A stretch of DNA of 64,000 bases from IMG/VR virus record IMGVR_UViG_3300031578_004185, positions 3,779 through 67,778 of that record. One strand, 5' to 3'. A model generated the notes under the pieces. That model saw only the letters and a program-made list of their open reading frames with translations, did not search any database and was not told where the DNA came from. This DNA comes from a virus. Below, piece by piece: positions 24,323 to 51,591 of the stretch (position 1 is its first letter; the number at the start of each line of letters is the position of its first letter). The translations under genes were made by a program, and so were the position numbers.

Positions 24323-24352
24323 ATTAAAGCACACAGCACAGCACTTTGTCAA
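24323..24352 (-). promoter_or_regulatory. sigma70-type promoter with GTGCTGTGCTGTGT spacer
   Basis: TTGACA, 18 nt, TTTAAT; 14-bp spacer identical to the promoter at 60201-60229. Confidence 0.7.
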
Positions 24353-24370
24353 GTATTAAGGTTTCCCTTC

Positions 24371-26734: not shown

Positions 26735-26745
26735 AATATTCCCCC

Positions 26746-29452: not shown

Positions 29453-29834
29453 TACGATCTCCCTGTTCTGTTTTTTGACTCTGCATTTCCGCCAGTATCT
29501 CTTTAACATCAGCGAGTTCCTTTTCCATTTTCTCAAATATGTCACGGAAAGGACCCCCCGAGTCCCATGACTGCACGTTGTTGGCTCTATAGAAGGAGGG
29601 CAACATAAATACCCACTCAAGTATGGCCATAATAATTACAATCAAGACTAATACCAAACAAAACACCCAGAATGACAACGGTATCCCCCATGCCGTGAAT
29701 ATGGGGTTTATCGTTGTATAGAAACTCATTACTCCTACCAATGCAAGAGACAGCCAGCTCGCATAAGGACTTATATTGCCTATAACTATCTTAACTGCTC
29801 CCATGAATGTACCTGTCTGACGTTGCCTAAACAC
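29439..29834 (-). CDS. Small membrane protein (2 TM + coiled coil)
   Basis: Hydrophobic helices; start may be ATG 29804. Confidence 0.6.
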   Translation of the reverse strand: MFRQRQTGTFMGAVKIVIGNISPYASWLSLALVGVMSFYTTINPIFTAWGIPLSFWVFCLVLVLIVIIMAILEWVFMLPSFYRANNVQSWDSGGPFRDIFEKMEKELADVKEILAEMQSQKTEQGDRNGNH

Positions 29835-30943
29835 TATTCACCTCCCTTTAGATCTTCTAGCAGTTTGCAGTATTGGTCGGTTATTTCATTCCACGAGAAC
29901 AGCTCCAATACCCGCTTCCTACAGGCTTTCGCCATCCGTTGGGCAGCTTCTTTATGCTTCAGTGTCCAAGATATAGACCGTTCTAAGTCATCCACGTTCC
30001 CCGGCTCAATCAATAGCCCAGTAGTTCCCGCCTGTATTATTTCTTCTGTTCCTCCAACACTTGTGGCTATCACGGGAATACCAAACGACGCGGCCTCCAT
30101 CACTGCTGTTGGTAACCCCTCCGAGTATGATGGGTTAACAAAAATACGAGCCGAACGGTAAACATCGTCCAGTTGCTTCCCCGACAACTCCCCAAGAAAT
30201 TGGATACTGTTGCTACCGCCAGCAATCTCCCGCAACTGCCTCCGATACGGACCATCCCCGACAACCACAAGTGGAAGCCTCCCACCTAGTCGCTTGTGGG
30301 CTTCAATCAGATCCTGAACGCCCTTCGCCCGTACCAATCTGCCGACATAGAGTATTGAATCCGCCGTACCGGCAACGTTGCCGTTACCCACTATTCCATT
30401 AGAAATTCTGATTGTTCCCCGTGCCCCCAAATGCTTGGCGAAATTACAGGCAGCTCCGGATACTCCGACCACTCGCTCGGCTCTTCGCATGATCCAGCTC
30501 CCGATACTATGATCGTATGCTTTGCTGATAAGGTTGATCGCTAGATTTGCCACAACAGCATGACGGGAACCCCTTTCCACGTGAACTAGTGGCAACCCAT
30601 GCAACGCCGAGAAGACAACTCCTACAAAGGACAACACAAAGAATCTTGTCTGCGTGATAACTACATCGTAGTCACGTTTCCTCGCTAAGACACTAAGCAA
30701 CATTTTGGATGGCAATGGTACAGGGTACTGCCTATCCAGTAGAAGTAGACTCGGAACACGCCTGACCTCCACCCCGTCTATTGCCTCAATTGCTAGTGAG
30801 TCACCCAATTGACATGTGATCACATCCACTTGATACCCTCGCTCAACCAGCCTCCGGGACAACTCCAGTACGTTCTTTTCGTAACCCCCGACGTGTGGTG
30901 GGAAGAAGGACGCCCACACCAACAATCTTCTGGTACTACTCAC
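29834..30943 (-). CDS. GT4 family glycosyltransferase
   Basis: PPHVGG, YVGRLVRAKG, EGLPTAVMEAA. Confidence 0.92.
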   Translation of the reverse strand: MSSTRRLLVWASFFPPHVGGYEKNVLELSRRLVERGYQVDVITCQLGDSLAIEAIDGVEVRRVPSLLLLDRQYPVPLPSKMLLSVLARKRDYDVVITQTRFFVLSFVGVVFSALHGLPLVHVERGSRHAVVANLAINLISKAYDHSIGSWIMRRAERVVGVSGAACNFAKHLGARGTIRISNGIVGNGNVAGTADSILYVGRLVRAKGVQDLIEAHKRLGGRLPLVVVGDGPYRRQLREIAGGSNSIQFLGELSGKQLDDVYRSARIFVNPSYSEGLPTAVMEAASFGIPVIATSVGGTEEIIQAGTTGLLIEPGNVDDLERSISWTLKHKEAAQRMAKACRKRVLELFSWNEITDQYCKLLEDLKGGE

Positions 30944-31157
30944 TTTTTTTGTTCCATTCTATAATATTCCAGACTCGTTCATGAACATAATACAGTACCA
31001 CTCCTGCAACCAAATCCGCGATGCCTATACCGGTAGACAACCAGAGTTCCCCAGTAAACAGGAAGACTATAGTCATCGTTCCCAGAACCCCAACACATCT
31101 ATAGGAAACAGCTTTTGTTAGTGACCTTGACTTGGTTTCTTTCGTTTCAACCCCCAT
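30936..31157 (-). CDS. DUF2061-like small membrane protein (second copy)
   Basis: RSLTKAVSYR...YYVHERVWNIIEW. Confidence 0.75.
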   Translation of the reverse strand: MGVETKETKSRSLTKAVSYRCVGVLGTMTIVFLFTGELWLSTGIGIADLVAGVVLYYVHERVWNIIEWNKKSE

Positions 31158-31266
31158 TTGTCTTTTATTTGCTCCCGTATTTAGTTATTCTACCGGCGGG
31201 AAAGCTCCTTTATGTCTAAAGACGTACCAAACCAGCCACACCAAAATCAGGTAGTGCTTTACAAAG

Positions 31267-32466
31267 TCAATTGCCCATTCCCAAACCGACATTAGTCTGC
31301 TCATAACCCGCCCTCCTGAATATCAAATCCGATCCAACGGCACTGGTAGCAGATACACCAGCCAGCATCCACCAGAGGGGAGCCAACTGTGACCAAACGA
31401 AATGGTCGAATATGCTGAGAGTTAATATCAGTACCCAAGCATATTTCGTCTTTGTCTTTACCAAACACCACATTGATATCCATAGCCATGCCACTGACGC
31501 CAAAATACCCGGAACCCCCAATTGTTGAATAATTATTAGCGGGACGTTATGAACGGTGTGTACCGTGAACCCCGTCAAGTTGTACCCTTCCCCAAGCGGC
31601 TTTATACTAGTGAGTGCGTCCCTTATAACTAGCGCCCGATGGGTCAGCGGGGATACGTTAGCCGTTTCACCACTTGGTGCAACATAAACCGCCATGGGAT
31701 CCTGTTGGACGGTTCTAACAACATATGAATACAACGACTGTCCCCAACCAACAACAAATACCACAACAATCAGTAAAACTGTTGTGGTACCTATAGCCAT
31801 CAACCTTTTGCTCCAATCTCGTCTTATCAGCAATGTTAGTCCTAGTACCCCCATCGCAAATAATGCCTCGGGTGCACCACTGAAGAGCAACGCTATTACT
31901 GCTAATCCAGCCAGCAACCACTGCCACTTATGAATGAACAGGGCGACCCCCAAGAGGATATACCCCGTAGCAATATCAAAATTGTGTTCAAATATGAACC
32001 CCCCCGTGTGTTGTCCTGGATACACTAATCCACGAATAACAATTCCCAGCGAAGCAATTCCGGCACCGATAGCCAATGGAAGGAATACTTCCTTGCCCAG
32101 AACCCTCGATGCCAAATAGACGGCAAATAACGCAATTCCCATCCCCAGTGGAGCGACCTTGTCCTGCCAGCCATTGGCAGTGATCCCCGATAGTCCTATT
32201 GCCGCAACTATAATAAGAAGGGGAACAACTATTCTCTTATCCCCCCATCCTATCTCTTTAACCTTATCCCAGTTGTAGAGAAGAAACAGCCCCGTTCCCA
32301 TCATTAGGAGCAGGTAGCCGAAAGCAGGAAGAAAGAAGAGGGTTTCACCCTTACTATTTGTGGCCAGATCAGTTAACCATAAATTGTGAATTGGGGACAA
32401 AGCAAACCCGGCACCGATGACAACCACCCACCACTTGCTTACCTTGCTACTTTCTTCTCGTACCAT
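31267..32466 (-). CDS. O-antigen ligase/Wzy-like membrane protein
   Basis: About 10 TM; HNVPLIIIQQLGVPG ligase motif. Confidence 0.75.
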   Translation of the reverse strand: MVREESSKVSKWWVVVIGAGFALSPIHNLWLTDLATNSKGETLFFLPAFGYLLLMMGTGLFLLYNWDKVKEIGWGDKRIVVPLLIIVAAIGLSGITANGWQDKVAPLGMGIALFAVYLASRVLGKEVFLPLAIGAGIASLGIVIRGLVYPGQHTGGFIFEHNFDIATGYILLGVALFIHKWQWLLAGLAVIALLFSGAPEALFAMGVLGLTLLIRRDWSKRLMAIGTTTVLLIVVVFVVGWGQSLYSYVVRTVQQDPMAVYVAPSGETANVSPLTHRALVIRDALTSIKPLGEGYNLTGFTVHTVHNVPLIIIQQLGVPGILASVAWLWISMWCLVKTKTKYAWVLILTLSIFDHFVWSQLAPLWWMLAGVSATSAVGSDLIFRRAGYEQTNVGLGMGN

Positions 32467-33945: not shown

Positions 33946-35505
33946 CTAGTCGTGCTCTGGCATACCAAGTTTGTCACATAAGAATTCAAGACCTATATGC
34001 TGCACTACTACTTCCCCTGCTATCTCATCAGAGGATGCAATCCTGTCTATAATAATCCCCATATTGTCAACAATTTCTACTCCTGTCATATCCAGAGGAA
34101 AGTGTATGCTGTAGGTTTGGAACTGAGCAGCTACGCCGGTTAGGGTCTCTATGATAACAGTATCACCAGTAGCAGGTACAATGTCTGTCCCTACTGTAAT
34201 GCTCTCATATTCTAGCTCAATCCTGAAAGCATCGGTAGCTGCGCCTTGGGCATCGGTTATCCAGCAATGTAAGTGTACCCAAGTGGTTTCGCCTTCGTAT
34301 ACCCAGATGCCATCGCCGTCTTCACAGCTACAGTAGAGTCTTCCATCGTATTCTTTTAGGAACATTGGAACATCAGCACTAACCTTGCTGTAGTCCGAGT
34401 TCTTGTTCCAGAAGTCTCCTATGTTTGACCAAACGCTTGATTGACAGGCACTAAATAGTTTCCCGTCATATTCCTCAAGCCCTATTGGCTGATTGTCCTG
34501 AGTGGTTTGAATATTGGTGCTTACTGCCCAAGCTCCTCCAGATTTTGCCCAGGTTATATCATCTCCCTCACAATTTAAATATAAATCTCCATCGTGTTCG
34601 TGAAACTCAGCAGGGTCGCTGCCAACATCATCATCTTTTGCCCAAGTTCCAGCACTTCTTATCCACACATCGTCATCAGTACCAAGACATCCAACATAAA
34701 GGTCTCCCTCGTATTCAGCCAAGAATCTCGGCATAGCACCAACAGCACCGGCAACACCGCCTGCACCAAGAGCAGGGTCTACAGACCATACCCCACCACT
34801 AAGTCTCCAGATTTCGTCATCATCTTCGCAGGTAACATATAAGTCTCCTCCGAACACTGCCATTCCTTCAGGATGACCACCTACATCACCGCTTTTCGCC
34901 CAAGTAGAACCGTCAAACATCCAGACAGTATCATCAAGGCGACAGGTAACATATAAATTGCCATCGTATGTGCAAGAATAGCGTGGGTTTCTATCTACAG
35001 CACCGCTTATACTAAAGGTTGTGCCGTCATAGACCCATACATTGTCATCGCCATTGCAAGGAATATAAAGTTTGTCCTCATAAACAGCCATCCCTCTGGG
35101 CTTGTCGCCAACGTCCTGCAAGTATGTCCAAGCTGGCTCTGACCACCTGTTAGGAATGCACATATCAATTGTTAGTATCTCATCAGCACCAGCAACAGGC
35201 AAGCTAAATCCACCAAAGACTCCTCTAGTTACCCAAGTGGGCGCTCCCTGTGCCCTGATTGTCTCAAAATCTAGGTCGGGTCTTAACTCTATCCACGCTT
35301 TGCCATCTCCACTGAGGACAATCTGGCCACCAAACTCAGACGTTCCGGTTGTGGTTAGCCCGTCGGTGTTGGCTATCCCGGTAGTATATAACCTATCCGG
35401 CAAAGGGTCATCAGCAGTGCAACTTAGCGGTATTACCAGCGCGATGAGAAGGAGTATGCCAAGCACGGCACCTCCGATTCTCCTAGCTTGGACGCGCCCA
35501 CTCAT
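33946..35505 (-). CDS. Exported beta-propeller protein, putative receptor-binding/virion surface protein
   Basis: Signal/TM, then about 6 repeats of type DVGxxPxxMxxYxGxLYxxCxxDDxVW; probable start ATG 35505. Confidence 0.7.
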   Translation of the reverse strand: MSGRVQARRIGGAVLGILLLIALVIPLSCTADDPLPDRLYTTGIANTDGLTTTGTSEFGGQIVLSGDGKAWIELRPDLDFETIRAQGAPTWVTRGVFGGFSLPVAGADEILTIDMCIPNRWSEPAWTYLQDVGDKPRGMAVYEDKLYIPCNGDDNVWVYDGTTFSISGAVDRNPRYSCTYDGNLYVTCRLDDTVWMFDGSTWAKSGDVGGHPEGMAVFGGDLYVTCEDDDEIWRLSGGVWSVDPALGAGGVAGAVGAMPRFLAEYEGDLYVGCLGTDDDVWIRSAGTWAKDDDVGSDPAEFHEHDGDLYLNCEGDDITWAKSGGAWAVSTNIQTTQDNQPIGLEEYDGKLFSACQSSVWSNIGDFWNKNSDYSKVSADVPMFLKEYDGRLYCSCEDGDGIWVYEGETTWVHLHCWITDAQGAATDAFRIELEYESITVGTDIVPATGDTVIIETLTGVAAQFQTYSIHFPLDMTGVEIVDNMGIIIDRIASSDEIAGEVVVQHIGLEFLCDKLGMPEHD

Positions 35506-35506
35506 T

Positions 35507-35788
35507 CTACTCACTCTCGACCCCTGTATTGGCCGACACGTACTGGATGTACTGCCCAACAGCCAATGGTCGGATAAACCTCTCTACCTGCCCTCTCGAC
35601 AACCCACTCGTTTCGGAGATCTCGTCGATATCGCTCGTTCCTCTAGTCTCCAAAGCCATCAGTATCCTACTCTTGGGATCGCCGGAGAACTCCTGTAGTT
35701 TCTCTCGCCCTTCCTGCGTCAACCTGAAGGTAGCATTCCTCGGTATCCCCGGTCCCTTGTGTCCAAATCGTCCGAAGAAGAAACTCAT
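35507..35788 (-). CDS. Winged-helix DNA-binding protein
   Basis: RILMALETRGTSDIDEISETSGLSRGQVERFIRPL. Confidence 0.65.
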   Translation of the reverse strand: MSFFFGRFGHKGPGIPRNATFRLTQEGREKLQEFSGDPKSRILMALETRGTSDIDEISETSGLSRGQVERFIRPLAVGQYIQYVSANTGVESE

Positions 35789-35962
35789 TTTATCTTCTTA
35801 TCCTCCTTCGTGCTTTATTCAAGTGCCTTTGCGTTTTGGTAGTCTTTATTTTAGGCAACTCCCTAGTTTTTATCACCTTACCACCCCGGACAGTTTGTCT
35901 CACCCGCTTCCCCGATGAGTAGGTTCTTACTCTATGGGTTACTCCACCAAACATAATAGACA

Positions 35963-37069
35963 TTAGCTGTCATCCGCCCTAACTCGCGTAGAAAGTTGTG
36001 GGGCCGACTTCGAGTTGTAAATTTTGAAATAACACGGGTAGTCTACAACCATCTTCGGTCTCTTCCCAGCTAACTTCAATCCTAGCCCTTTCAGGGTACC
36101 CAACACCTCGTCCTCGGTCATATCCCCATCAGTAGCCAGCAGGTCTACCATCTCTTCGTAGTTGTCAACACCTGCCCTCAGTACCTCTAGGACAATCCGT
36201 TCTTCGTCCGTTTCCGGCTGGTACCGCTTGCCATACTCGGTGATTCGTATCTTCCCATCTCCCAGATGGCTTCTCGGTCGCCCGGCGTCTACCGGTATCG
36301 GGAATGGCCGTCCTATCGGTAGTATCAAGTCCTTTCGCTTGTCGTATGCCACTCTCTGCACATAGTAAACGAATCCTGTGATATTGGCGGCGGACTTGGT
36401 ACAGGTTACCATCCAGTTGATGTAGGGCTTCGCGGTAAACCTGTCCAAGTCATCCGTAGTCTGTATCGTTCCCAAGACGAAGCTATCCAGATGCCTGTAC
36501 ACCTTATGGATAGCCCCCATCGTCTTGTTCATGGGACTGTGAGGTTCTCGTTTGTAGCAGTACTTCCAGAACTCGGTGAGGTACAGCACGGAGTTTTTGA
36601 GCATAATCTCCCCCGCACCCTTTACCCACTCGTCGGCAGCCTTCTCCAAGACTGCGTTGACATCGGCTACTTTCGCTACTCCCTTCGTTGCCTGCCTCAT
36701 CTTGGCGAAGTCGTCGTGGAGGACATGTTCATTGAACAACCCGCCATAAGGTCCGTAGAGGTCTCTAGGCGGTTCATCACGCAGTATGCGCTTCCATGGG
36801 AAGTATCGCTTGATAGTGTGGCTCAGGTAGTTACCGAACAAGTCCTTACCTGTGCCAGGGACACCATACACGACACACAAGCCCCACAGACCAGTCACTT
36901 CCCTTGGCACAGTGAACAGGCGGTATAGCAAAGTAGCTCGCCGCCTGTCTAACATAGACAGATCGGAGCCGAACTTGATTCCCGACTCGTCGTCGTACCC
37001 TACAGATTCGTCGTAGAGTTCAAAGGTATTTCTATCCGGCTTATTCCTTCCCCCAAGCGTCGACACCAC
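35963..37069 (-). CDS. Zot/pI-like (FtsK-HerA clade) P-loop morphogenesis/packaging ATPase
   Basis: Walker A GVPGTGKD, Walker B-like VLYLTE, YRHLDSFVLGTIQTTDDLD motif; C-terminal wHTH-like region. Confidence 0.75.
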   Translation of the reverse strand: MVSTLGGRNKPDRNTFELYDESVGYDDESGIKFGSDLSMLDRRRATLLYRLFTVPREVTGLWGLCVVYGVPGTGKDLFGNYLSHTIKRYFPWKRILRDEPPRDLYGPYGGLFNEHVLHDDFAKMRQATKGVAKVADVNAVLEKAADEWVKGAGEIMLKNSVLYLTEFWKYCYKREPHSPMNKTMGAIHKVYRHLDSFVLGTIQTTDDLDRFTAKPYINWMVTCTKSAANITGFVYYVQRVAYDKRKDLILPIGRPFPIPVDAGRPRSHLGDGKIRITEYGKRYQPETDEERIVLEVLRAGVDNYEEMVDLLATDGDMTEDEVLGTLKGLGLKLAGKRPKMVVDYPCYFKIYNSKSAPQLSTRVRADDS

Positions 37070-37573: not shown

Positions 37574-38347
37574 CTATTGTACTCCTAGCGCATTCCGGAT
37601 CTTGGCGACATCATCAGCTATCTTGGCTACATCCATACCCGATATGTTAACCAGCTGGTATATCACATAACCGAGCAAGAGCAGTATCAGTGCCAGCCCG
37701 ACATAGACGACAGTCGGGTTGAGTTGTCTCCCCAGTTTCTTAATCGCGTCCTGTAGAGGGTTCATGATATCCTTAGCTACCGTAACGGCCAGTTCAGATA
37801 CTTTCTCTTTGGCTATATTCCCCAGCACAGCAGGACTGGCTACCATCTCCCTAGTGGGCGCGGTCTTTAACTCGTCAGCCATATCCAGCAACTGACTCTT
37901 GACCTTGCTATCAGTCAGCGACTCGGCGAGTTCCCGCAACGAGTCCTTAACGTCAGGACTAGCGACACCCTCACTGTACGAACCTCGGTTAAGCAACGGT
38001 TCCCAGTCATTGGCATCCACGATGAGTGTCCGTATCTTGCGCTGGAGAAATGTAGGGATAAAGCCGTCCCCAGGGTACAGCATCTCAATCGTGCATATCT
38101 CGGCAAACGGCCACGTCTTGGTTGTGCCCGTCTTCGGATCGGTAATCGATACGCTAGTGCTTGTCTTTGGAACATAGTGTGTCGTCGTGCTTCCATCCGA
38201 CTCGCGGACAAGTAGTTTCAGCTCGTTATCTACTCTCTTGTGCCACTGCCACTGGTAAAAAGCAATCATCAGGACGAATATCACAAACAGGTAAAGGACG
38301 ATGTCTAGTCCGCTAAAATAAGTTGCCTCTACTTCTGGTCCAGTCAT
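37574..38347 (-). CDS. Membrane protein with N- and C-terminal TM
   Basis: Two terminal hydrophobic helices. Confidence 0.75.
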   Translation of the reverse strand: MTGPEVEATYFSGLDIVLYLFVIFVLMIAFYQWQWHKRVDNELKLLVRESDGSTTTHYVPKTSTSVSITDPKTGTTKTWPFAEICTIEMLYPGDGFIPTFLQRKIRTLIVDANDWEPLLNRGSYSEGVASPDVKDSLRELAESLTDSKVKSQLLDMADELKTAPTREMVASPAVLGNIAKEKVSELAVTVAKDIMNPLQDAIKKLGRQLNPTVVYVGLALILLLLGYVIYQLVNISGMDVAKIADDVAKIRNALGVQ

Positions 38348-38646
38348 CCGATCCCCCTTTCGAGTCTCCTTTGTTCTCGTTTTCTTAGTCTATCTATGCT
38401 CCGGCTATGCCCGATTCTCCTGCTAGATTCTCTCAAGTTATGCGTATCGTCTAACCTCTTGCCTCGGAGAAACGCACTCGCAGTACCCAAGTCACGCGTC
38501 GGGTACCGTTTCAACTCAAAGTTTGCCCCAGCCAGAAGCTCCAGACCCTTGCGACGAGCTTCCTCCTCGTTTACACCACCGTAAACGAGATACGGGCGAT
38601 TTTGGTCATAGGCTACGATCCAGTAATGGTATCTTCGCTCTCTCAT
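38344..38646 (-). CDS. Hypothetical basic protein
   Basis: Start reassigned to MRERRYHYW at 38646 (SD GGAGG). Confidence 0.6.
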   Translation of the reverse strand: MRERRYHYWIVAYDQNRPYLVYGGVNEEEARRKGLELLAGANFELKRYPTRDLGTASAFLRGKRLDDTHNLRESSRRIGHSRSIDRLRKREQRRLERGIG

Positions 38647-38735
38647 CTTTTCCTCCAAGCGAAGAACAGGTATGCGATAACGATAAAGGCAATGAGTACC
38701 ACAGACCACACAGAGAGAGAACTGAAATCAATCAT
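38643..38735 (-). CDS. 30-aa single-TM protein
   Basis: Manual: MIDFSSLSVWSVVLIAFIVIAYLFFAWRKR; SD GAGG; ATGA coupling. Confidence 0.55.
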   Translation of the reverse strand: MIDFSSLSVWSVVLIAFIVIAYLFFAWRKR

Positions 38736-38752: not shown

Positions 38753-38797
38753 AAAAAAGGGACAGAGAGTACCCTTCTATGGAGTACTCTCTGTCCC
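38753..38797 (-). terminator. Rho-independent terminator after capsid-like gene
   Basis: 14-bp perfect stem GGGACAGAGAGTAC/GTACTCTCTGTCCC followed by T-run. Confidence 0.9.
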
Positions 38798-38819
38798 GTT
38801 CGCCCGGGAGGTGCCATTC

Positions 38820-39005
38820 TTAGCCCTTCCTCCCGATTGACATGACCACGCCTATCAGGATCGCGGCCGCCACGATCACCCGGAGCAGGTTCTGGAGGAT
38901 GACGGAACCAGTATCGGTTCCGGTTATGATGTTGGTGATGAGGCTGTCAATCACGACGAAAGCTACAACGCCGATTACGACGGTAACAAGTCCTCGTACT
39001 GACAT
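38820..39005 (-). CDS. Putative major capsid protein, spindle-virus-like helical hairpin (61 aa)
   Basis: Two hydrophobic helices joined by NIITGTDTGS loop, basic C-terminus; own promoter and terminator. Confidence 0.6.
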   Translation of the reverse strand: MSVRGLVTVVIGVVAFVVIDSLITNIITGTDTGSVILQNLLRVIVAAAILIGVVMSIGRKG

Positions 39006-39050
39006 TAACTATCACCTTCCTTCTCGGGCTGGACGGCCCTGTTAAAAGTT

Positions 39051-39079
39051 ACTTTAGCACTTGTGTTCTGTTTTGTCAA
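39051..39079 (-). promoter_or_regulatory. sigma70-type promoter for capsid-like gene
   Basis: TTGACA, 17 nt, TAAAGT with TG extension. Confidence 0.8.
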
Positions 39080-39114: not shown

Positions 39115-40989
39115 TTACACTCTCCTTCCACCTGCCAACGACATAACGAACCCGACAATCATTCCGGCGGCAACCACTATCCAGATGTAGGATAGCGCGG
39201 CCAGATCCGTTCCCAAAAACCCGAGCGGTAGAGTGGAGATAGTTAGTATCAGGTCAAGCAACTTGGCAGGGAACGTGATAAATCCCATAACACCCGCCGT
39301 GTCTGCGATGCGGGCTATCTTGTAGTCTATACTGGCATTCAGTATCGCTGCCTCTCTGGTACGGACGGTAGCGTTCTCAGCATGGGTCGCTGCGTCCGTA
39401 TCATGCTCCCCTCTGGTTAGCGGGTTAACAGTGAGCGGTCCGACTGTGGTACTCTCGAAGGTAGTATCCGTCTTGGAGGGGTAGCCGATATGCTCGTCTC
39501 CAATAACTACAAAACCGCTATCCGGGAAGCCATCCGTGCTGGCTACGTTGATAGTTGCAGTCTCCGTGTCCGTAACAGCGGATGTAAGGTAGGTCGCTAC
39601 CATCGCATTACTGCCCGCAGCGTAGTTCCCGGCGATGGACACGATAACAAACATCCACAACATAAACATAAAGCCTTTGTGGAGGGTCTCCGAGCGGAAG
39701 AACAAGACATAACCAACGAAGGCACCACTAGCTATAAATAACAAAGAGGCGACTAACGGAGACAGCATACCGAGCAATGCTCCTCCGACTATCATTATGG
39801 AGAATACAATCATCACCGACTTGCCACTACCTACTCCCTCGCCGCGACCAGCACTCTCGCCGAACTCGCCACTGGGGGTTTCTACTTTATACACAGCAGC
39901 GCACACCAGCAAAGTTATCAGCATCCAGACAATCCCGGAGAGGAACCACCGAGACATACCGAATGTAGCAGCCAGCGTGGTCAGGTCGATACCTGTGCCC
40001 GTCACGGAGGTATCCATTAAGGTGATTGTGGTAACTTCCTCTACATCCACCGTGAACGTCCCTGCCCCGGTAACAGTCAAGGTATTTATACCTGGGGTCA
40101 GGTCAATAGGGACACCTGCGATTGTTCCCGTGCCGTCGTCTATATCGCCGAATGTCCACCCAGCGAGGTCTATGATGATAGTGCCAGTAGTTACCCCCGT
40201 GTCTATCGTATTCACCCCCTCGGTTAGTGTTACGGGCGAACCGACTATGGTCGCCCCGCCACTGGTCGCTGCCCCCCCGAAAGCGGTGTCGTAGTCCAAC
40301 GGTGTGTACTCGGGGTCGGTCTCCACGCTAGAGAACGCATCAGGAGCAATGTCCCTGAGATGCGGAATAGTGTTAGCGAAGTAACTCTCACCGAGAGTAG
40401 TCAGGGTACTCCCACCTCCGTATATCTCCTGTATCAAATCAAGCGACCAGAGTACTTCCAGCACGTCGGCGTAGTAAAGAACGCGTAGAGCAATAAGACT
40501 GGATGGGTCGCCCACAGTACTCCACTGGTCAATACCCGCTATCGTCTTGGGCGGGTCGGGACCCGGCACCCATCCCAGAGCAGGGTTACCGGATAGCCAT
40601 ACTTCGTGGAGGGCAATGTTGGTGCTGTCCAGTCCGTACGCAGTCGCTTCGGCGGCGGTGAACCGTATCCATATCAGTCCCCTGCCATAGCCGCTATCCT
40701 GATAAACGTATGGTGCTACCGACTTTAGCTGGGTAGTCCCGTCCGTGTCCACGAATATCGCCATATAGGCCTCGGCTGCGGTCTCGCTGGGGAGGGCTGC
40801 GTAGTCGAGGTAGTAGTCAACGAGGACACCGACGTCCCCGTCCTCGTAGCAGTTCTCGTAAACGTAGACGGCGTTGATAGACGGCGCACTATCAGGATCG
40901 GCGATGGCGTAAACAAGAGCAGGAGCGACCAGTATAGCCACAAGAGCAATCAGAGGGACGATTATAATTCGCTTCACAAGCCTTATCAT
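39115..40989 (-). CDS. Exported acidic protein with several C-terminal TM helices (virion/membrane)
   Basis: Start reassigned to MIRLVKRIIIVPLIALVAILVAPALVYA (ATGA overlap); beta-rich ectodomains. Confidence 0.75.
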   Translation of the reverse strand: MIRLVKRIIIVPLIALVAILVAPALVYAIADPDSAPSINAVYVYENCYEDGDVGVLVDYYLDYAALPSETAAEAYMAIFVDTDGTTQLKSVAPYVYQDSGYGRGLIWIRFTAAEATAYGLDSTNIALHEVWLSGNPALGWVPGPDPPKTIAGIDQWSTVGDPSSLIALRVLYYADVLEVLWSLDLIQEIYGGGSTLTTLGESYFANTIPHLRDIAPDAFSSVETDPEYTPLDYDTAFGGAATSGGATIVGSPVTLTEGVNTIDTGVTTGTIIIDLAGWTFGDIDDGTGTIAGVPIDLTPGINTLTVTGAGTFTVDVEEVTTITLMDTSVTGTGIDLTTLAATFGMSRWFLSGIVWMLITLLVCAAVYKVETPSGEFGESAGRGEGVGSGKSVMIVFSIMIVGGALLGMLSPLVASLLFIASGAFVGYVLFFRSETLHKGFMFMLWMFVIVSIAGNYAAGSNAMVATYLTSAVTDTETATINVASTDGFPDSGFVVIGDEHIGYPSKTDTTFESTTVGPLTVNPLTRGEHDTDAATHAENATVRTREAAILNASIDYKIARIADTAGVMGFITFPAKLLDLILTISTLPLGFLGTDLAALSYIWIVVAAGMIVGFVMSLAGGRRV

Positions 40990-43826
40990 AAGGTCGGACT
41001 CCTTTCGGACACGACACCCGCAGCGAATAGTATTATGGACAAAACTACCAGATAAAGAGGGAATATGTTGTGGTCGAAAGCGACCAATCCTCCCAGTGCG
41101 ACCCCCGCGATAATTACCACGATACCTCGATGACCTCGTAACCACCGAGCTGCTCCGACTGTAACGAACAGCAGGAACGCCAAGCCGAGCCAGCGCCATA
41201 CCCATATCTCGGTCAGGGTAGTGTTATCGGATACCATCGTGATAAACGGACGGACAGGGTTAGCCAGCGTCGCCGCTTTGGTTACCGTTCCGTCTCCATG
41301 TATATCTCCCCCTGCAGGCGTAACGAGTATGTCTCTGGTCTCCCTATCCTCGGCTGTTCCCGGTGCAGGTTGGTCTTCAGCAGTAAAGCTACCGAGGGCG
41401 ACGGCTACTCCTGTGGGGTTAACCCCCCAAGTTATTCTGCCGTCGTTAGCACCAGTCTCGTCTACTACAGTCCCGAAGTCGACAGTGAAGGTGTCGCCAG
41501 CGTCTACGTTAGCCGTAAGAGCAGCAAACTGTAGCTCGTCAGTAGCGGCGAGGAAGTCGGTAATCACCGCCGTTTCGCCTTCAGGGGCAAGACCATCGGT
41601 GGTCTCGGTGATTATCAATCTCGCCCCGTTCCAGTAGTCGTCAGCCTGTGTGAGAGCAGCGTCTATAATCTTGACATCGGTACTACCCGCGTCGGCGGTA
41701 CTGTCCTCGCCAGTATTGTCAACTATCGTGTCGGGTTGGTATTTTAGTACCTCTGCCCCGCCGACATCAATGGTCATATAGTCCATATAAGGCATAACAT
41801 TGTTTTGCATCAATAACCAGTCATTAGCAGTGTTAGGAACACTCGCTCCTAATAGTCTAGCATCATCTTCCATAGTCCCATCAATAGAAATACTTAGTGT
41901 ATGTGGTCTAGTACCAACAATCCAAGATGTGTTTGCGCCTGCTGTGCCTGCGTTTGCCCCAGAGCCGTAAGAGGTTATATTAACTCCTGTCCCCTCATCA
42001 ATATACCAGAAGTCTGTCTCATCCCCCGGTGGTGTGCCATTATACAAAGCTGTCTCTTCAGCAGCAGATAAATCATCTGTCCCAACACAGAAATCACATA
42101 TACTCCCGATGAACGGGCTCGCACTGCTTGTATTTGTATAACAGCCTATATAAAAGTTATTTGTAGTGCCGATTGCCTCGGCGTTTGCGTTAGTATCGGC
42201 AACCCCGTTATCTACTCTCAATCTTGCTCCATTACTGGCAGCACCACCACCAACTGCCTGCCCCATACTGGCAATTACATGATACCACTGCCCCCCATTC
42301 CAACTAGCTTGGGTACTGTAATAAGCAAACTTTGTAGCACCTGCTACTACGTTATTAAAATAGAGCTTCCCGTTGAAGCTCCTGAGGTAAAGATTAAAAG
42401 TAGTTGTCCCGCTATACTTGTTAAACAAATACATATTATCGTCTGCACCAGCCTCATAGTCCTCATCCAGTTTGAACCAGAAGCTAATCCACAGTTTAGC
42501 TGAGGCGTCATAAATATCACCGCAGTCTATTCCTTTATTAGTAGCATCGGGGAAGTATAGTAGTGTCCCTTCAGCTAGATTGGAAGTTGTCCCTGCTTTA
42601 GTGTTGATTGTATATTCACCACTGTCAATACTTGTGGCAGTTACATCTAGGTCAGCTGGACAGATAGCTATAGTGTTAGACATCCACTGTTGTCCTGCCG
42701 AAAGAGTAAAAACTCCCGGGTCATCACTTACTGCATTTAACTCTCGCCTAGCACTGCCTATAGCTACACCCTCAGCATTAGCAGCAACATTGTTAAGCCC
42801 ATTCCCATAGTTGGCAGGATAAGCATTGACAGTTACGTTGTCATCATTTAGTTCCATAGCAAACCACAGCGTATTTCTAGCACCCCACGAAGGTACTAAG
42901 TTAGGGGGGTCAGGATTAGCACTATTCCCATTGGTAGCGACCCCGTTTTCTGGCACCTCTGAATAGCCAGTAATGCGGTATATAGTGTAAGCAGTCATTT
43001 CAGCAGCATCGGTAGTAACAGTGAAAGGGTCATCTTCGCTAGCACTAGCTACCTTATACCAAGCCCCACCTCTAGCATCTGGTGCACCAAAAGTGTCCTT
43101 CTGAAACAGATTAGTCCATCCTCCGGGAAAGGCTATAGCAGGAGTCCCATCAGTCCCAAAGAACACTAACAGTAGGTCGCCAGCTACAACCCCAGCAGGT
43201 AGGTTAACAGTATGGTTCAGTCCATTAACGGCGTTATTGCCACCATTAGTTGTTGCAACGGTAGGAAAAGCTCCTCTATGTATCAGTGCAGAGGTAATCT
43301 CATCTTCAGCACTAACATAAGTCCTGAAAGCATCTTCTTTATAAACCAAGTTCTTATCAGCACCAGCGTCAGTATTGATATACCCGCTCTGCTCAATCTC
43401 AAAGGTATCACCAAGCTCAATAGTAGCGTCATCAGGGATAGTTATGTACCCGTCATGCCCGGGGATAATATCCATACTGGAAGCAGGAGTGCTTCCCGTA
43501 GTGTAGTAGAGATTGACCTGCGAATCGGCAGGGACGGCGGTAGCAGTAAGTGTCCTGTCTTGGGCAACCATCCAAGGCTTCTCGGAACCCCCCAAGGTCT
43601 CGACACGGGTATCCAGCGCGTCCGCTCGCATAAAGCCGTTATCCGCCATCCATTGATTATTGGCGTCGGTCTGCGTCGCCAGCATATCGTAGGCGTTGCC
43701 GCTATCCTCGGTGATAGCGAACGAGGCACTGTACGCAGCAGCTAGCACAGGAGCCGCAACAACTACCAGAGCGAGGAACACCAAGGCTAACGATAAAACA
43801 CGACTAAGTAGCTTGGTCTTAATCAC
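40986..43826 (-). CDS. Exported LamG/ConA-domain protein with C-terminal TM anchors (putative spike/tail)
   Basis: Signal peptide; WISFWFK...WYHVIAS...FYIG...FIGSICD LamG pattern; 3 C-terminal TMs. Confidence 0.75.
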   Translation of the reverse strand: MIKTKLLSRVLSLALVFLALVVVAAPVLAAAYSASFAITEDSGNAYDMLATQTDANNQWMADNGFMRADALDTRVETLGGSEKPWMVAQDRTLTATAVPADSQVNLYYTTGSTPASSMDIIPGHDGYITIPDDATIELGDTFEIEQSGYINTDAGADKNLVYKEDAFRTYVSAEDEITSALIHRGAFPTVATTNGGNNAVNGLNHTVNLPAGVVAGDLLLVFFGTDGTPAIAFPGGWTNLFQKDTFGAPDARGGAWYKVASASEDDPFTVTTDAAEMTAYTIYRITGYSEVPENGVATNGNSANPDPPNLVPSWGARNTLWFAMELNDDNVTVNAYPANYGNGLNNVAANAEGVAIGSARRELNAVSDDPGVFTLSAGQQWMSNTIAICPADLDVTATSIDSGEYTINTKAGTTSNLAEGTLLYFPDATNKGIDCGDIYDASAKLWISFWFKLDEDYEAGADDNMYLFNKYSGTTTFNLYLRSFNGKLYFNNVVAGATKFAYYSTQASWNGGQWYHVIASMGQAVGGGAASNGARLRVDNGVADTNANAEAIGTTNNFYIGCYTNTSSASPFIGSICDFCVGTDDLSAAEETALYNGTPPGDETDFWYIDEGTGVNITSYGSGANAGTAGANTSWIVGTRPHTLSISIDGTMEDDARLLGASVPNTANDWLLMQNNVMPYMDYMTIDVGGAEVLKYQPDTIVDNTGEDSTADAGSTDVKIIDAALTQADDYWNGARLIITETTDGLAPEGETAVITDFLAATDELQFAALTANVDAGDTFTVDFGTVVDETGANDGRITWGVNPTGVAVALGSFTAEDQPAPGTAEDRETRDILVTPAGGDIHGDGTVTKAATLANPVRPFITMVSDNTTLTEIWVWRWLGLAFLLFVTVGAARWLRGHRGIVVIIAGVALGGLVAFDHNIFPLYLVVLSIILFAAGVVSERSPTL

Positions 43827-44344: not shown

Positions 44345-44476
44345 TTACTTGACCCCCTTACCGACTCTACTCCGCAGTTTTTTTACAAGGTACCGCATAA
44401 GTGGGACAACTGTGAACACTACTATCCCAATTAGAGCGTAAACAAACACTCCGAACGACGATGGTATTTCACTCAT
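44345..44476 (-). CDS. 43-aa single-TM protein
   Basis: Manual: MSEIPSSFGVFVYALIGIVVFTVVPLMRYLVKKLRSRVGKGVK. Confidence 0.55.
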   Translation of the reverse strand: MSEIPSSFGVFVYALIGIVVFTVVPLMRYLVKKLRSRVGKGVK

Positions 44477-47400
44477 AGTCTCACACTCCTTACCACGGTT
44501 GGCTGGTTGTCCCTTTTGCCGATCCGCTTCGGTTTCTTCTTGCTCATCTTAGCTCGGTTGACCCCCTTGCTACTCACGCCCTCTGTACTATGGGCGTCAG
44601 ACCCTCTGAGCCACCCGGGGTCCTCGTCAAAGTACAAGTCCCTTGGTTCGGGTTCAACCTGCCTTATTCTAGCAGACTCCACCCGCTCTTCAGCTACTCT
44701 CTTTCTCTCCTCCACTACCTCTGGACGATTAACGCCCCGCATCTCGATTTCCCCTTTTACCCTGTCAGGCTTGGTAGTAGCGGATATAGCCGTCCTTGAT
44801 ACGCTGTGAGCGGGCTTGACAGTACCAATCTCCGAGCGAGATATGCCTTGACTCGGCACGGACATGCCCTTCGTAGGACTGTCAACTCCTCTACCGACAT
44901 TGGTCTCCAGACCCTTACCACCGACCTCTATCCGTTGTCCATAGTCGCTGATAAAGAAGTCCACTATGCCGAAATCGGCATTAACCTTCTCAGGGACTTT
45001 AGCCCTTGGTTTGCCTATCATCTGCACCGTCCCCTTGACCGTCTTTAGGTGCGTGTTCTTTGCCCCCATTGGGACTACGCCTCTAGGGAGCGTCTGCATC
45101 TTCGGCTGGTCCCACGGAGGAGGTGCCCATCGCCAGAACAGACCATGCTTCACTGTAATGCTCCCCGGCGGTAACTCTGCTCGCTTACCGGATATCCGTG
45201 GTCTGACCAAGGCAACTGGTGGGGGCGGCGTAACAGGTATTATTCTGGGCGTCGGTCTAGGGGTCACCACAGACATAATAGGTGTTTTCACAGGCGTAAC
45301 CGGCGTTTTTCTCGGTGTCTCTCTCGGTGTCTCTCTCGGTGTCTCTCTCGGTGTCTCTCTCGGTGTCTCCCTAGACGTTGTTCTGGGAGTCGTCCTAGGT
45401 GTTATCTCGGGAACCAATCTTGGGGTGCCCCTAGCACTAATCTCCGGCACAGGCTCCCCTGCTACACGCGTTGGTGCGAACCCGGATGTGACTGGAACTC
45501 TCTCAGCGAAGATTGTTTGTTCCCTAGCCTCGGAGGGTGGGATTTCCCTAATTCCAGCCATAGCACGAGGAACTATTGGGATAACGCGCAACATTCTCCG
45601 TTCACGGAAAGGAACGAGGAAATCAGTAGGCCCGGCTCTTGGAACCTCAGCAAGTGTTGCTTTAACTCGCCTAGCATTGTCGTTCGAGGCGTACAACAAA
45701 TCCCGCTCAGGGGTCTTAAAAGTAGCCTTCAAGTTCTTAACATCCCTAGCCTTCTTTGCTCCCCGTAATATCTCATACTCAGGAGTTCCTTTGGGGTACT
45801 GCTTTATCCCCGCAGTCGGTAGGTGTTTATCCACCACAACCAACTTGGAAGTATCAAACCCCCGCTTGTAAAGTTCTATGTACAGAGACGGGCTGACGGC
45901 TGCTGAATCCCCGGAGCGAAGAACACGGACAGCACCAATCTCCGGCTCGTATACCCACTCTCTCGCCTTCCAGTCGTACCACTTGTTCATTGGTATCTTC
46001 AATTTCAGGCTAGCAGGTTCGCCGTCAAACATATATGTCCCAAAGGCGGAGTGTTCAGTGGTCTTGCCCATGTGGACTTCGGCAGGACGCATATTTTTAA
46101 CTCTAATCCCCAGTTCGGATATTATTTGCTCCTCAGCGAACTCCTTTAGTGTCCCTCTACCAAAGGGTCGACCAACTCTCGGTTGCCCTCTCACATCTAT
46201 TTGCCCACCGATGGTATTCCAGACTCCAGCAAGATCAGTCGCAGCCGTATCGGTTCCTACGATATATGCCCCCTTGATAGTGGGGTGTTTAAGCATCACA
46301 GCCGTTCTCGGAACGACCCAGTTATCACCGAATTCCCGTACCGGGTGATAGTATGGGTCTCTCGTTCGTACCAACCTACCATTTCGGTCAACAAAAGGAA
46401 CGTCAGCCAACCCAGAAGGGTCTCCGGCTTTCTCTAACTTGGAGGCTAATTCAGGGGTAGACAATCTTCGACTTGGGTCTCTACCTTCCAAGAACGCGCG
46501 GACAGCAACGTCGACAGGACTGGATTTCATCTCCTGCAACGTTATTCCCCGGCTGTACCACATCTTCGGCGAGGTGACGATATCACTAGCCCTAGCTCTT
46601 GGTCTAATAGCTTTGCCAGGGTCAAACCAGTTCTCTATCGCCACTTTAGGGCGACTAACGAATTTGGTATGATACAACTGTCGCATAGTTGGTAATACTC
46701 TGCCCTCGGCGATTGCCGCGTTCGTTGCCGTAATGACAATCGGCATACTCTGACCGGCTCTGATACGTTGCCCGGTTACTATATCCATACCCGCGATCGG
46801 GCTGTAAGTTGTTATGGTCGCCACTTCGGGCATCGTCTCCCCACCTGTGGCAACCTTATCTAACCTACGGACAGGAGCGAACACCTTGGAAGTAAACCCT
46901 GCAGGGGTAACCATCTCCAATTCCCAAGTGGGTCTAATTTCACCGCTCGGTTCTTGTGACCAGTGAAACTTGTAAACAGGGTAAACACCTTGGGGCAGAG
47001 CATCGGGATGCCCGGGAGGTAATAGTGCTCTCCGTTCTACTTCACGCCTGAGCAGGTCGTTCGCCGCGGATACGGGGTCGCCAAAGTTGCGCTTCTTGGC
47101 TGCCATCCATATCCTCTCGTTCCGCATCTGCTTAGAAACCGCTTCGTGGACAACCATAGGCAAATCCCGTATGTCTTTAGAGCTGTAGCGGAGCATTTTG
47201 CCACCAGGAGAATACCAATCCTTTATCTTAGGAATCGTATCCTTGGGTATCACGTAGTCCTTGAACTTGGGACTGGACGGGTTCTCTAAAAGTTCACGCA
47301 ATACCGTCTCCGCAGTCTTCTTGGTAACCAACGCACGATTGGCGACGCGAAATGAGTTGACTACTTCCTGCGGTATCTTGCCCAAGTACCACCCAGCGAC

Positions 47401-51372: not shown

Positions 51373-51576
51373 CTATTTACCTCCTATAGTCCACACGATA
51401 TAATAAGGACTACGAGAGACCAAAGTCTGCCCCCTCGTCACGCGCGCTAACTTGCCTCGCTTTCGCAGGACAGAAGCAAAGTTGCGCGCTTCCGACTTGG
51501 TATCAAAATCACGAGAGAAGCGATATTTGATACCGCCGAAGGTTCTATAGCCAAACTGTTTCCGCCTGTTAGCCAT
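51373..51576 (-). CDS. Small basic protein (family A)
   Basis: RTFGGIKYRFSRDFDTKSEARNFASVLRKRGKLARV...YIVW. Confidence 0.7.
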   Translation of the reverse strand: MANRRKQFGYRTFGGIKYRFSRDFDTKSEARNFASVLRKRGKLARVTRGQTLVSRSPYYIVWTIGGK

Positions 51577-51591
51577 TGCTGGTTACCTCCA

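Follow-up and report, generated by a model that had tools for sequence, protein, structure and literature searches.

A conserved two-helix membrane hairpin is a candidate major structural protein of a large, possibly non-tailed bacterial virus

Introduction

Nearly all known bacterial dsDNA viruses larger than ~20 kb are tailed phages. Among viruses of other kinds, the filamentous-phage protein pVIII is inserted in the membrane before assembly, and the Ff phages have a strong terminator after the coat gene. Members of the Pleolipoviridae and Plasmaviridae encode a P-loop NTPase, a small protein of the membrane, and a spike that carries a signal peptide and is anchored at its C-terminus; they have no capsid shell and leave the cell without lysing it.

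A bacterial element without tailed-phage hallmarks, IME1 of Dehalococcoides and Dehalogenimonas, is 21–28 kb long, circular or integrated, and carries a tyrosine recombinase and a primase-helicase together with a pI-like ATPase (HOG04) and several small transmembrane (TM) proteins, including the hairpins HOG00 and HOG01; two of its small TM proteins are structurally like SSV1 VP1 (bioRxiv 10.64898/2026.09.15.751708). According to its authors, IME1 may form dsDNA virions that bud without lysis or are filamentous; filamentous particles were observed in the viral fraction (same preprint, October 2026).

Here we describe a 61-residue hairpin protein encoded within a 64,000-nucleotide stretch of an IMG/VR virus record (IMGVR_UViG_3300031578_004185), referred to below as the window. 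On balance we lean towards the reading that it forms the main structural component of a membrane-associated dsDNA virus that has no tail and infects a bacterium, and the virus probably represents a new lineage of large bacterial viruses without tails.

Results

The hairpin gene and its transcription unit

The gene and its signals occupy positions 38753–39079, which is the exact span from promoter to terminator:

39051–39079, minus strand: sigma-70-type promoter, TTGACA-17-TAAAGT with an extended -10 (TG); an equivalent lies upstream of every homologue
39011–39020, minus strand: Shine-Dalgarno site GGAAGGTGAT, 5 nt before the ATG
38820–39005, minus strand: gene for the 61-residue two-helix hydrophobic hairpin protein, candidate major virion (coat or envelope-lattice) protein, from its translation, conservation and AlphaFold2 model
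38753–38797, minus strand: intrinsic terminator, a G+C-rich hairpin at 38759–38797 (14 perfect pairs, 16 with wobble) followed by TTTTTT

Translation of the open reading frame reproduces exactly the 61 residues quoted in an earlier note on this DNA, and the location of promoter, Shine-Dalgarno site and hairpin terminator bears out its description of the gene as a transcription unit of its own. Shine-Dalgarno sites of the GGAGG type are present on most genes of the window. AlphaFold2, run on the protein with 21 homologues, predicts a helical hairpin (residues 3–26 and 32–58) with a mean pLDDT of 89.8; the turn reads TGTDTGS and the C-terminal tail GRKG. A complex prediction with four copies of the protein scored 0.00 against a mark of 0.42 and bears neither way.

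Conservation and wider family

The protein has more than 210 database homologues at 77–100% identity. Across eight related loci it is the most conserved product of its module, with 82–100% amino acid identity, compared with 29–84% for the other module genes (40–74% for the large ones and 51–74% for the ATPase). Codon comparison with relatives, at nucleotide identities of 75–83%, gave 23–32 synonymous and 1–3 non-synonymous differences (9 in the most distant), and the protein is under very strong purifying selection. A TTGACA-N16-18-TAnnnT promoter and a hairpin/T-run terminator surround the gene in every relative checked; the flanks have diverged and the terminator sequences differ, with the signals kept. 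One locus (L001) has two tandem copies of the gene, each with its own promoter and terminator. The gene behaves like one for a major structural protein, being the most conserved, monocistronic, and duplicated in relatives.

Two residues do not vary within the close family, D20 of helix 1 and R42 of helix 2. The wider family consists of proteins of 57–77 residues with a common ITGTDTGS turn; in 12 of the 37 distant members a proline at position 42 lies in an LLPL or LVPL motif after the turn. The hairpin also recurs, in permuted form, at the end of some large proteins, namely P0305 and P0308 (E 4e-4 in a search of 1.84 billion proteins). The C-terminus of the 696-residue protein described below also shows a likeness to the family (z 4.8), which we set aside since it is absent from that protein's homologues.

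Within the contig, a family HMM searched against all ORFs matched only the gene itself. No match was found by tblastn of the hairpin protein and the ATPase against GenBank phage records, by a family profile search of PDB sequences, or by a search for family members in 185,579 species genomes, and a Pfam scan of the 37 family members returned noise-level TM families only. In metagenomes the family is abundant, with hundreds of matches and relatives in sediments and wetlands, and the gene is therefore a ready marker for such viruses.

Comparison with spindle-virus capsid proteins

The earlier note had likened the protein to the capsid proteins of SSV1 and His1. The architectural part of this claim stands, as the AlphaFold2 model has the two hydrophobic helices and short turn of the VP1/VP3 type; homology to SSV1 VP1 or His1 was not found by HMM, hhalign or Foldseek. 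PF06281 (SSV1 VP1/VP3) gave no match in the Pfam scan and nothing at E<=10 in a six-frame search, and PF25665 (His1 VP21) gave no match at E<=10. In hhalign, A1 and A6 scored 3.4% and 6.5% against a 30-member VP1/VP3 alignment, and the comparison with His1 VP21 gave 0.35%. The proposed Foldseek check turned out negative: nothing in the PDB was significant for the model, MscS TM hairpins rank above SSV19 VP1 (7xdi_A), and the latter, the only small whole-chain match among the PDB rows (TM 0.60/0.55), appears at a non-significant E of 5.7. The best BFVD match has an E of 1.4. The searches run here yield no sequence or profile tie to any known capsid family, and the two-helix hairpin is the commonest small membrane-protein fold, which counts against a structural role.

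The protein could nonetheless be a true, very diverged homologue of SSV1 VP1/VP3 and His1 VP21, with a lemon-shaped virion. Besides the equal size and architecture and the SSV19 VP1 match, this would account for two neighbouring clusters in the ESM Atlas, taken as leads only (11% of the members of one, which scores 0.89, carry PF25665 His1_capsid; the other, at 0.81, has PF06281 in 29%), and for the resemblance of the LLPL/LVPL motif to NLVPLF in VP1 and ELLPLL in VP21. A linear genome with inverted terminal repeats, as in His1, would also fit, and so would the pPolB-like gene, the glycosyltransferases and the large proteins with a C-terminal anchor, all of which His1 has too; predicted archaeal spindle viruses reach 72.6 kb (PMC9894754). 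Set against these are the negative HMM, hhalign and Foldseek results, an ATPase that is not AAA+/DnaA-like as in SSV1 and His1, and the bacterial host signals, and we consider such homology unlikely. No matching motif was present in the supplement accompanying the ANME-1 spindle-virus records OP413839 and OP880254.

Neighbouring genes

Besides the hairpin gene, the conserved module holds genes for an ATPase, for small basic proteins, and for large proteins that have a signal peptide and are anchored in the membrane at the C-terminus. The neighbouring genes are:

33946–35559, minus strand: 537-residue acidic repeat protein, beta-propeller-like, with a TM helix at the N-terminus
35507–35788, minus strand: 93-residue conserved protein (48–84% identity) with a faint winged-helix match only
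35790–35963, minus strand: 57-residue protamine-like protein (19 K+R, 1 D+E), candidate DNA-condensing protein
35963–37069, minus strand: 368-residue P-loop ATPase (GVPGTGKD) with a pI/Zot, B204 and HerA fold, candidate morphogenesis or packaging motor
37574–38347, minus strand: 257-residue conserved protein with TM helices at the N- and C-terminus
38344–38646, minus strand: 100-residue basic conserved protein starting MRERRYHYW, possibly DNA-binding
39115–40989, minus strand: 624-residue protein (696 residues as the longest ORF); it has several TM helices, a signal peptide and a conserved C-terminal FLGTDL...GGRRV hairpin
40986–43826, minus strand: 946-residue protein containing a ConA-like lectin domain (Laminin_G_3), with a signal peptide and with TM anchors at the C-terminus
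44473–49902, minus strand: 1809-residue protein with TPRE repeats and a central pair of TM helices; 1344–2722 residues among relatives

The predicted ATPase model folds like filamentous-phage pI/Zot, STIV B204 and HerA; its best Foldseek match is the Zot N-terminal domain, whose P-loop fold it shares. The Zot HMM (PF05707) gave nothing at E<=10 in four records and no match in the Pfam scan. The modelled fold supports an ATPase of the pI/Zot-B204-HerA kind and not a terminase. The 624-residue protein is a candidate minor virion or adhesin protein, and the 946-residue protein a candidate spike or receptor-binding protein. The slot of the 537-residue protein is hypervariable among relatives, and it is therefore a candidate host-recognition protein. 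The 1809-residue protein gave no usable match in the ESM Atlas. Its TM helices lie mid-protein, as they can in tape-measure proteins, an observation that weighs against a non-tailed virus.

Elsewhere, the window contains:

2–1561, plus strand: gene for a protein that weakly resembles family B polymerases of the protein-primed type; it lies close to the left inverted terminal repeat
15277–32466, minus strand: glycosylation island of ~17 kb
54942–57644, minus strand: fusion of UDG, 3'-5' exonuclease and family A DNA polymerase

The island encodes GT4 glycosyltransferases, a DegT aminotransferase, epimerases/dehydratases, WbqC, radical SAM/SPASM and AsnB-like proteins, as well as methyltransferases and 13-TM and Wzy-like membrane proteins.

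Searches for tailed-phage hallmarks

That no terminase, portal, HK97, tail or lysis gene had been recognised in the window was confirmed by Pfam and PHROG searches of all ORFs and by six-frame searches. The earlier note had singled out the rest of the contig as a place to look; an 11.4-kb extension of the window also gave no Caudoviricetes hallmark or lysin family, and three relatives likewise gave no significant match to terminase, portal, HK97 capsid, tail or lysin families. More specifically, the terminase families PF03354, PF03237 and PF04466 gave nothing at E<=1 in G000-G003 and there was no PHROG terminase, although a very divergent form could escape or lie on unassembled DNA; there was no match to PF04860 (portal) or to PHROG HK97 and portal families, and structures were predicted for two proteins. 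PF05065 (HK97) gave only a sub-threshold 14-bit match, inside a 2428-residue ORF of one relative. Divergent HK97 or jelly-roll capsids can evade HMMs; this and the 14-bit match count against the reading as a non-tailed virus.

One alternative is a very divergent tailed phage whose head genes were missed or unassembled, the 61-residue protein being a class II holin or an accessory protein, for example one of superinfection exclusion. Two TM helices and a short basic C-terminus would suit a holin, and the gene follows directly on genes for large proteins, one with a lectin domain and one with a likeness to baseplate wedge proteins, and for a giant protein whose TM helices are central. PHROG 'baseplate wedge subunit' families match a short stretch of the 696-residue protein (E 1.2e-7), which also speaks against our preferred reading. 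Automatic taxon labels of related clusters are Uroviricota, and in three distant family members a match to Phage_holin_3_6 stays at noise level (E ~0.05). CheckV puts the record at 42% complete, so that some genes may be missing, which likewise weighs against our preferred reading. However, searches of the ~79.5 kb and the three relatives turned up no endolysin, spanin, terminase, portal, capsid or tail family, and no lysin family that could form a lysis cassette beside the hairpin gene was found in the window, extension or relatives. Holins evolve fast, whereas this gene is the most conserved; it has a promoter-to-terminator unit of its own and duplicates in relatives, and it lacks a dual-start motif. 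There is no head module at the siphovirus position because the genes upstream of the 1809-residue giant are all small (46–131 residues), and the genome ends are inverted iterons. We assign this alternative a low probability.

Another possibility is a Varidnaviria-like virus, icosahedral and with a membrane inside, whose jelly-roll capsid went unrecognised; the 61-residue protein would then be abundant in that internal membrane. This we regard as quite improbable, as there were no PHROG or Pfam capsid matches and the conserved module has, besides the ATPase, no TM-free protein larger than 173 residues. We know of no membrane-containing icosahedral bacterial virus near ~79.5 kb.

The element might instead not be a virus at all, being a linear plasmid or other mobile element that spreads in membrane vesicles or by way of an apparatus resembling a secretion system or pilus; the hairpin would then be a subunit of the pilin type or of a vesicle coat. 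Pfam and PHROG scans of the ORFs gave no significant relaxase, VirB4, VirD4 or T4SS family, the replication and modification genes match phage families, and IMG/VR classes four such contigs as viral; we see very little likelihood in this explanation.

Genome ends and host signals

The genome is apparently linear, ~79.5 kb long and bounded by inverted terminal iterons, a call of inverted terminal repeats that rests on one 30-nt inverted match and the iteron distribution. IMG/VR 'provirus' labels were considered as a sign of integration, a reading we rejected because the provirus cut was placed within the glycosylation island of the virus itself and no homologue of the hairpin gene occurs on a contig larger than 86 kb.

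The bacterial expression signals described earlier were borne out by their placement. Eight of the 12 strict TTGACA-N16-18-TAnnnT sites lie in the intergenic 5.1% of the window, and all eight are co-directional with the downstream gene; a looser region-wide promoter consensus is not enriched (21 sites, 19.4 expected). Terminators consisting of a hairpin and T-run are found at gene ends in the window and relatives. These promoters and terminators suggest, from the sequence, a bacterial host. An archaeal host was considered, since the assembly that yielded one relative is cited in papers on deep-sea sediment; the promoter statistics argue against it. For a Dehalococcoidia host there are leads only, namely taxon labels on ATPase-like ESM Atlas clusters and the analogy with IME1. 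A genome scan with the DegT enzyme gave mostly bacterial matches, the best at 53% identity in a groundwater bacterium, which is too weak for host assignment.

Discussion

Our preferred reading is that the 61-residue hairpin is the subunit from which the coat or envelope lattice of a membrane-associated, non-tailed virion is built. More tentatively, and with somewhat less than even confidence, we propose that this contig and its many relatives form a new high-rank lineage of non-tailed dsDNA viruses of bacteria with linear genomes of ~80 kb and inverted terminal repeats, in which a virion of the 61-residue hairpin would be assembled at the membrane by a pI/HerA-like ATPase. The particle may be spindle-shaped, ovoid, pleomorphic or a thick filament.

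Assembly could proceed as follows. Host sigma-70 RNA polymerase would produce an abundant monocistronic mRNA of the hairpin gene, and the hairpin would insert into the cytoplasmic membrane so that its N-terminus (with R4) and its C-terminus (with R59/K60) both stay inside. The Thr/Ser-rich TGTDTGS turn would be left outside, where it might be modified by the virus's own glycosylation island. Lateral packing of hairpins would form a lattice, in which D20 and R42 could bridge helices. The ~79.5 kb linear genome may be condensed by the 57-residue protamine-like and 100-residue basic proteins and delivered to the lattice by the ATPase, with the lectin-domain, beta-propeller-like and multi-TM proteins incorporated as adhesins. 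The particle would then exit by budding or extrusion, without lysis.

A bacterial virus of 80 kb without head, tail and terminase genes would differ from the tailed phages. Its coat candidate is a membrane hairpin comparable to those of spindle viruses of archaea, and its motor is similar to filamentous-phage pI. Until now this plan has been established for no viruses other than the spindle-shaped or budding ones of archaea and the small ssDNA filamentous phages. If this is true, the known architectures of bacterial viruses would be widened, the claim that spindle or budding virions are restricted to archaea would be affected, and the IME1 proposal for Dehalococcoides would extend to far larger genomes that are widespread in anoxic sediments. 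Current pipelines label such viruses as Caudoviricetes or proviruses.

Several known systems share parts of this plan. Class II holins such as phage 21 S21 are, like the hairpin protein, ~60–70 residues long with two TM helices and a charged C-terminus, and are encoded after tail-fibre genes; unlike them, the present gene has no lysin partner and no dual start, and shows extreme conservation, a promoter and terminator of its own, and tandem duplicates. The pVIII protein of the Inoviridae is similarly small, hydrophobic and alpha-helical with a basic C-terminus, but it has one helix and a signal peptide where the 61-residue protein is a two-helix hairpin. Inovirus genomes are 4–11 kb of ssDNA, unlike the ~79.5 kb here, and the present ATPase differs from inovirus pI/Zot in having no TM segment and no match to the Zot HMM. 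The Pleolipoviridae and Plasmaviridae have kinds of genes comparable to those proposed here; their genomes are 7–17 kb, and pleolipoviruses infect archaea.

The SSV1 VP1/VP3 and His1 VP21 proteins share with the 61-residue protein a length of 60–75 residues, two hydrophobic helices, a Thr/Ser/Gly-rich turn and a basic C-terminus, and in both systems the gene stands as its own unit with paralogous copies. Glycosyltransferases and large signal-peptide proteins with a C-terminal anchor are common neighbours, and His1 also has a linear genome, inverted terminal repeats and a pPolB-like gene. The 61-residue protein differs from these capsid proteins in having no detectable sequence or profile similarity to them and no N-terminal propeptide, and the present genome differs in its bacterial promoters and terminators, its roughly fivefold larger size, its pI/B204/HerA-type ATPase in place of the AAA+/DnaA-like ones of SSV1 and His1, and the absence of a visible integrase.

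Compared with IME1, the present element is larger, at ~79.5 kb. It appears to be linear, ends in inverted repeats and carries genes for PolA and a pPolB-like protein as well as a 17-kb glycosylation island; no integrase was seen. As far as the published description of IME1 allows comparison, the two are alike in being bacterial, in showing no recognisable tailed-phage hallmarks, and in combining a pI-like ATPase with small TM proteins.

The hairpin gene and its transcription unit

The 61 residues quoted in the earlier note are exactly those encoded by a minus-strand ORF, and the signals of a separate transcription unit that it described are all present.

38820..39005, minus strand: 61-aa hairpin ORF
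39079..39051, minus strand: promoter TTGACA-17-TAAAGT with a TG extended -10 element, upstream of the gene
Upstream of the ORF, minus strand: ribosome-binding site GGAAGGTGAT
38797..38753, minus strand: terminator 3' of the gene, a 14–16-bp G+C-rich hairpin then TTTTTT

Positions 38753–39079 therefore span a whole transcription unit. With 21 homologues, AlphaFold2 models the protein as a helical hairpin, H3-26 and H32-58, with a mean pLDDT of 89.8. Between the terminator and the next gene lies a 30-aa single-TM ORF (38643–38735, minus strand), kept in at least one relative (locus L004, 52% identity).

A word-indexed search of 5.8 billion proteins recovered more than 210 homologues with 77–100% identity, on contigs of up to 85.5 kb. 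Across eight related loci the hairpin protein is 82–100% identical, the ATPase of the same module 51–74%, and other module genes 29–84% (40–74% for the large ones). DNA identity of the hairpin gene to its relatives is only 75–83%, and the codon differences are overwhelmingly synonymous (23–32, against 1–3 non-synonymous, or 9 in the most distant relative), showing that selection acts on the reading frame; the gene is real and strongly constrained. Every homologue examined has its own TTGACA-N16-18-TAnnnT promoter and a hairpin and T-run terminator that differs in sequence, and one relative carries two tandem copies of the gene, each with both signals.

The wider family, found by searching 1.84 billion representatives with a profile and no filter, consists of 57–77-aa proteins sharing the turn (I/V)TGTD(T/S)GS. 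Residues D20 and R42 never vary within the close family and occur together across the wider one, and a permuted hairpin copy forms the C-terminal end of a few large proteins of distant relatives (P0305, P0308). The C-terminal hairpin (FLGTDL...GGRRV; 39115–39330, minus strand) of a 696-aa ORF is co-linear with the 61-aa protein (z 4.8 versus shuffles), and the same domain in homologues of that ORF does not align to it (z about 0). A 65-aa DUF7838 (PF25208) protein is encoded in a small-gene cluster (53569–53766, minus strand); in a distant relative (L049:148-294) a DUF7838 gene lies directly upstream of a hairpin-family gene.

A conserved module includes a putative packaging motor

The gene order conserved around the hairpin gene is as follows, first to last.

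44473–49902, minus strand: giant 1809-aa protein with central TM helices
Acidic 173-aa protein
946-aa protein with signal peptide, ConA-like lectin domain and C-terminal anchors
624-aa multi-TM protein with signal peptide
61-aa hairpin protein
Basic 100-aa protein
257-aa protein with a TM helix at each end
166-aa protein
ATPase
35790–35963, minus strand: 57-aa protamine-like protein, directly after the ATPase gene
93-aa protein
Hypervariable slot, beta-propeller-like protein
Further two-TM proteins

The giant protein carries its two TM helices around residues 570–680 and a TPRE/TPRK repeat run around residue 1500; relatives encode versions of 1344 to 2722 aa. The 57-aa protein, which contains 19 Lys+Arg and only one acidic residue, looks like a protamine-like DNA condenser. 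A relative's structural module (L070:1-162; G003 51379-51774) encodes a protein with a prepilin-type N-terminal methylation motif (N_methyl, PF07963).

The ATPase has no match in Pfam or PHROG. The best matches of its structure model (pLDDT 84) are the N-domain of Zot (pI) from a Neisseria filamentous prophage (Foldseek E 3.7e-7) and the STIV/STIV2 B204 packaging NTPase; these folds indicate a motor of the FtsK-HerA/pI type, not a terminase. As leads only, PF05707 Zot occurs in 12–29% of members of neighbouring ESM Atlas clusters, and two Zot-carrying clusters are mostly Chloroflexota.

Genome form and replication genes

The window spans positions 3779–67778 of a 68,001-bp IMG/VR virus record. 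A 79,543-bp contig of the same virus starts within 122 nt of the record's left end and adds 11.4 kb on the right. A 3.7-kb contig is identical to the right arm of this longer contig, and its first 30 nt exactly match contig positions 88–117 in inverted orientation. Iterons (GTGTAATCAC) are confined to the two genome ends (G000:C1:1-117 in the record, 3.7 kb left of the window, and L072:1-110 at the other end), each with an inward-facing TTGACA promoter about 40–70 nt inside the repeat. The inverted match and the end-restricted iterons make a linear genome of about 79.5 kb the most likely form, with inverted terminal repeats and both arms transcribed inwards; the right terminus is calculated to lie at about 79,541. 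The linear form also fits a weak PolB-like gene near the left end, one of two polymerase genes in this genome.

2–1561, plus strand: protein-primed PolB-like protein, weak (Pfam E 0.006; PHROG DNA polymerase 5.9e-7), near the terminus
54942–57644, minus strand: UDG-exonuclease-PolA fusion (Pfam/PHROG scans)
15277–32466, minus strand: glycosylation island of ~17 kb, more than one-fifth of the genome (Pfam/PHROG scans)

The PolB-like gene is kept in relatives at 31–45% identity. The size also fits homologue searches, which found neither hairpin nor ATPase homologues on contigs larger than 86 kb. A CheckV completeness estimate of 42% for the record contradicts a near-complete genome of ~79.5 kb and remains a caveat. 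IMG/VR 'provirus' trimming of one relative cuts within the glycosylation island, so the provirus labels of the three related records (G001–G003) are probably artefacts, and low CheckV completeness values may be likewise.

A 320-nt intergenic region (4080–4399) contains about eight tandem copies of an ~11-nt unit like CACTATTACAC, whose reverse complement GTGTAATAGTG resembles the terminal iteron, followed by a G-rich tract and a perfect TTGACA-17-TAATAT promoter; the array may be an origin or operator array.

No detectable tailed-phage genes

The earlier note recognised no terminase, portal, HK97, tail or lysis genes in the window, and profile searches agree. Scanning every ORF of at least 55 aa against Pfam and PHROG found several DNA methyltransferases, an ERCC4-HhH nuclease, a Sak4-like ATPase and HTH regulators, and no terminase, portal, capsid, tail or lysin families. 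Six-frame searches of the record and the three related records with TerL, HK97 capsid and portal models were negative, except for one capsid match of 14 bits, below threshold, within a 2428-aa ORF of a relative. No Caudoviricetes hallmark was found in the 11.4-kb extension, where methyltransferases, MazG, a DinG-like helicase and small genes lie, and the strongest PHROG matches of 61 further ORFs from relatives are only to nucleotide-metabolism, methylase and HNH families. The main rival explanation, a very divergent tailed phage in which the 61-aa protein is a holin or other membrane protein, is less likely given the conservation of this protein, its own transcription unit, the failure to find a lysin and the near-complete genome.

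Some viral genes are interrupted by inteins or homing endonucleases: in the same virus a 974-aa N6/N4 methyltransferase (L056:4682-7606) has a faint LAGLIDADG match, and in an 85-kb relative an epimerase (L071:11210-13147) contains an intein.

A bacterial host

Exact TTGACA-N16-18-TAnnnT sites number 12 on both strands of the window; eight lie in intergenic DNA, which makes up 5.1% of the window (fewer than one expected by chance), and every one of the eight is directed towards the gene downstream. This placement, together with hairpin and T-run terminators, AXA-type signal peptides, a family A polymerase and, in one relative, the prepilin-type protein, upholds the bacterial signals reported earlier and shows the host to be a bacterium. 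The best DegT matches are bacterial and uninformative as to phylum.

Relation to spindle-shaped viruses and to IME1

Spindle viruses whose capsid proteins are hairpins are well established in archaea. Metagenomic ones reach 72.6 kb (PMC9894754). The earlier note read the hairpin architecture as that of SSV1 VP1/His1-type capsid proteins, and it does match SSV1 VP1 and His1 VP21 (sequences from GenBank records); homology could not be demonstrated. The PF06281 and PF25665 models have no match even at E<=10, hhalign probabilities for the hairpin family are 3.4% and 6.5% with an alignment of 30 VP1/VP3 members and 0.35% with VP21, and Foldseek finds no significant match for the hairpin model, with MscS TM hairpins ranking above SSV19 VP1 (E 5.7, TM 0.60/0.55). 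Two observations are leads only: neighbouring Atlas clusters partly carry PF25665 or PF06281, and an LLPL/LVPL motif follows the turn in 12 of 37 distant members, as in VP1 and VP21. It is plausible that the protein works like a spindle-virus capsid protein; membership of that family is not supported. The original observation is confirmed and its interpretation supported in part: bacterial signals, a coat-like gene and the lack of detectable tailed-phage genes have strong support, which does not extend to spindle-virus homology, the shape of the virion or a Dehalococcoidia host.

In the mechanism we propose, the monocistronic unit would be expressed at a high level and the hairpin would enter the membrane so that both of its ends stay inside and its Thr/Ser-rich turn is exposed outside. 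Hairpins would pack as a lattice, in which D20 and R42 could bridge helices, while small basic proteins would condense the DNA and the ATPase bring it to the lattice. Anchored lectin-domain and propeller-like proteins would be built in as adhesins, the glycan island possibly glycosylating virion proteins, and particles would be released without lysis. We infer that a thin filament would have to reach tens of micrometres in length to hold 79.5 kb of DNA in extended form, so that a thread of the inovirus kind seems less likely than a condensed core within a particle of spindle, ovoid or pleomorphic shape.

An October 2026 preprint describes the IME1 elements of Dehalococcoides (21–28 kb), which pair a pI-like ATPase with small TM proteins whose structure resembles SSV1 VP1. 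Filamentous particles were observed in the viral fraction, and its authors propose that the elements are dsDNA viruses, budding or filamentous, that are confined to Chloroflexota (bioRxiv 10.64898/2026.09.15.751708). Although the present element is three times larger, linear and without an integrase, and has other replication genes, it shares with IME1, as compared by published description only, the logic of a pI-like ATPase and a small hairpin-type TM protein.
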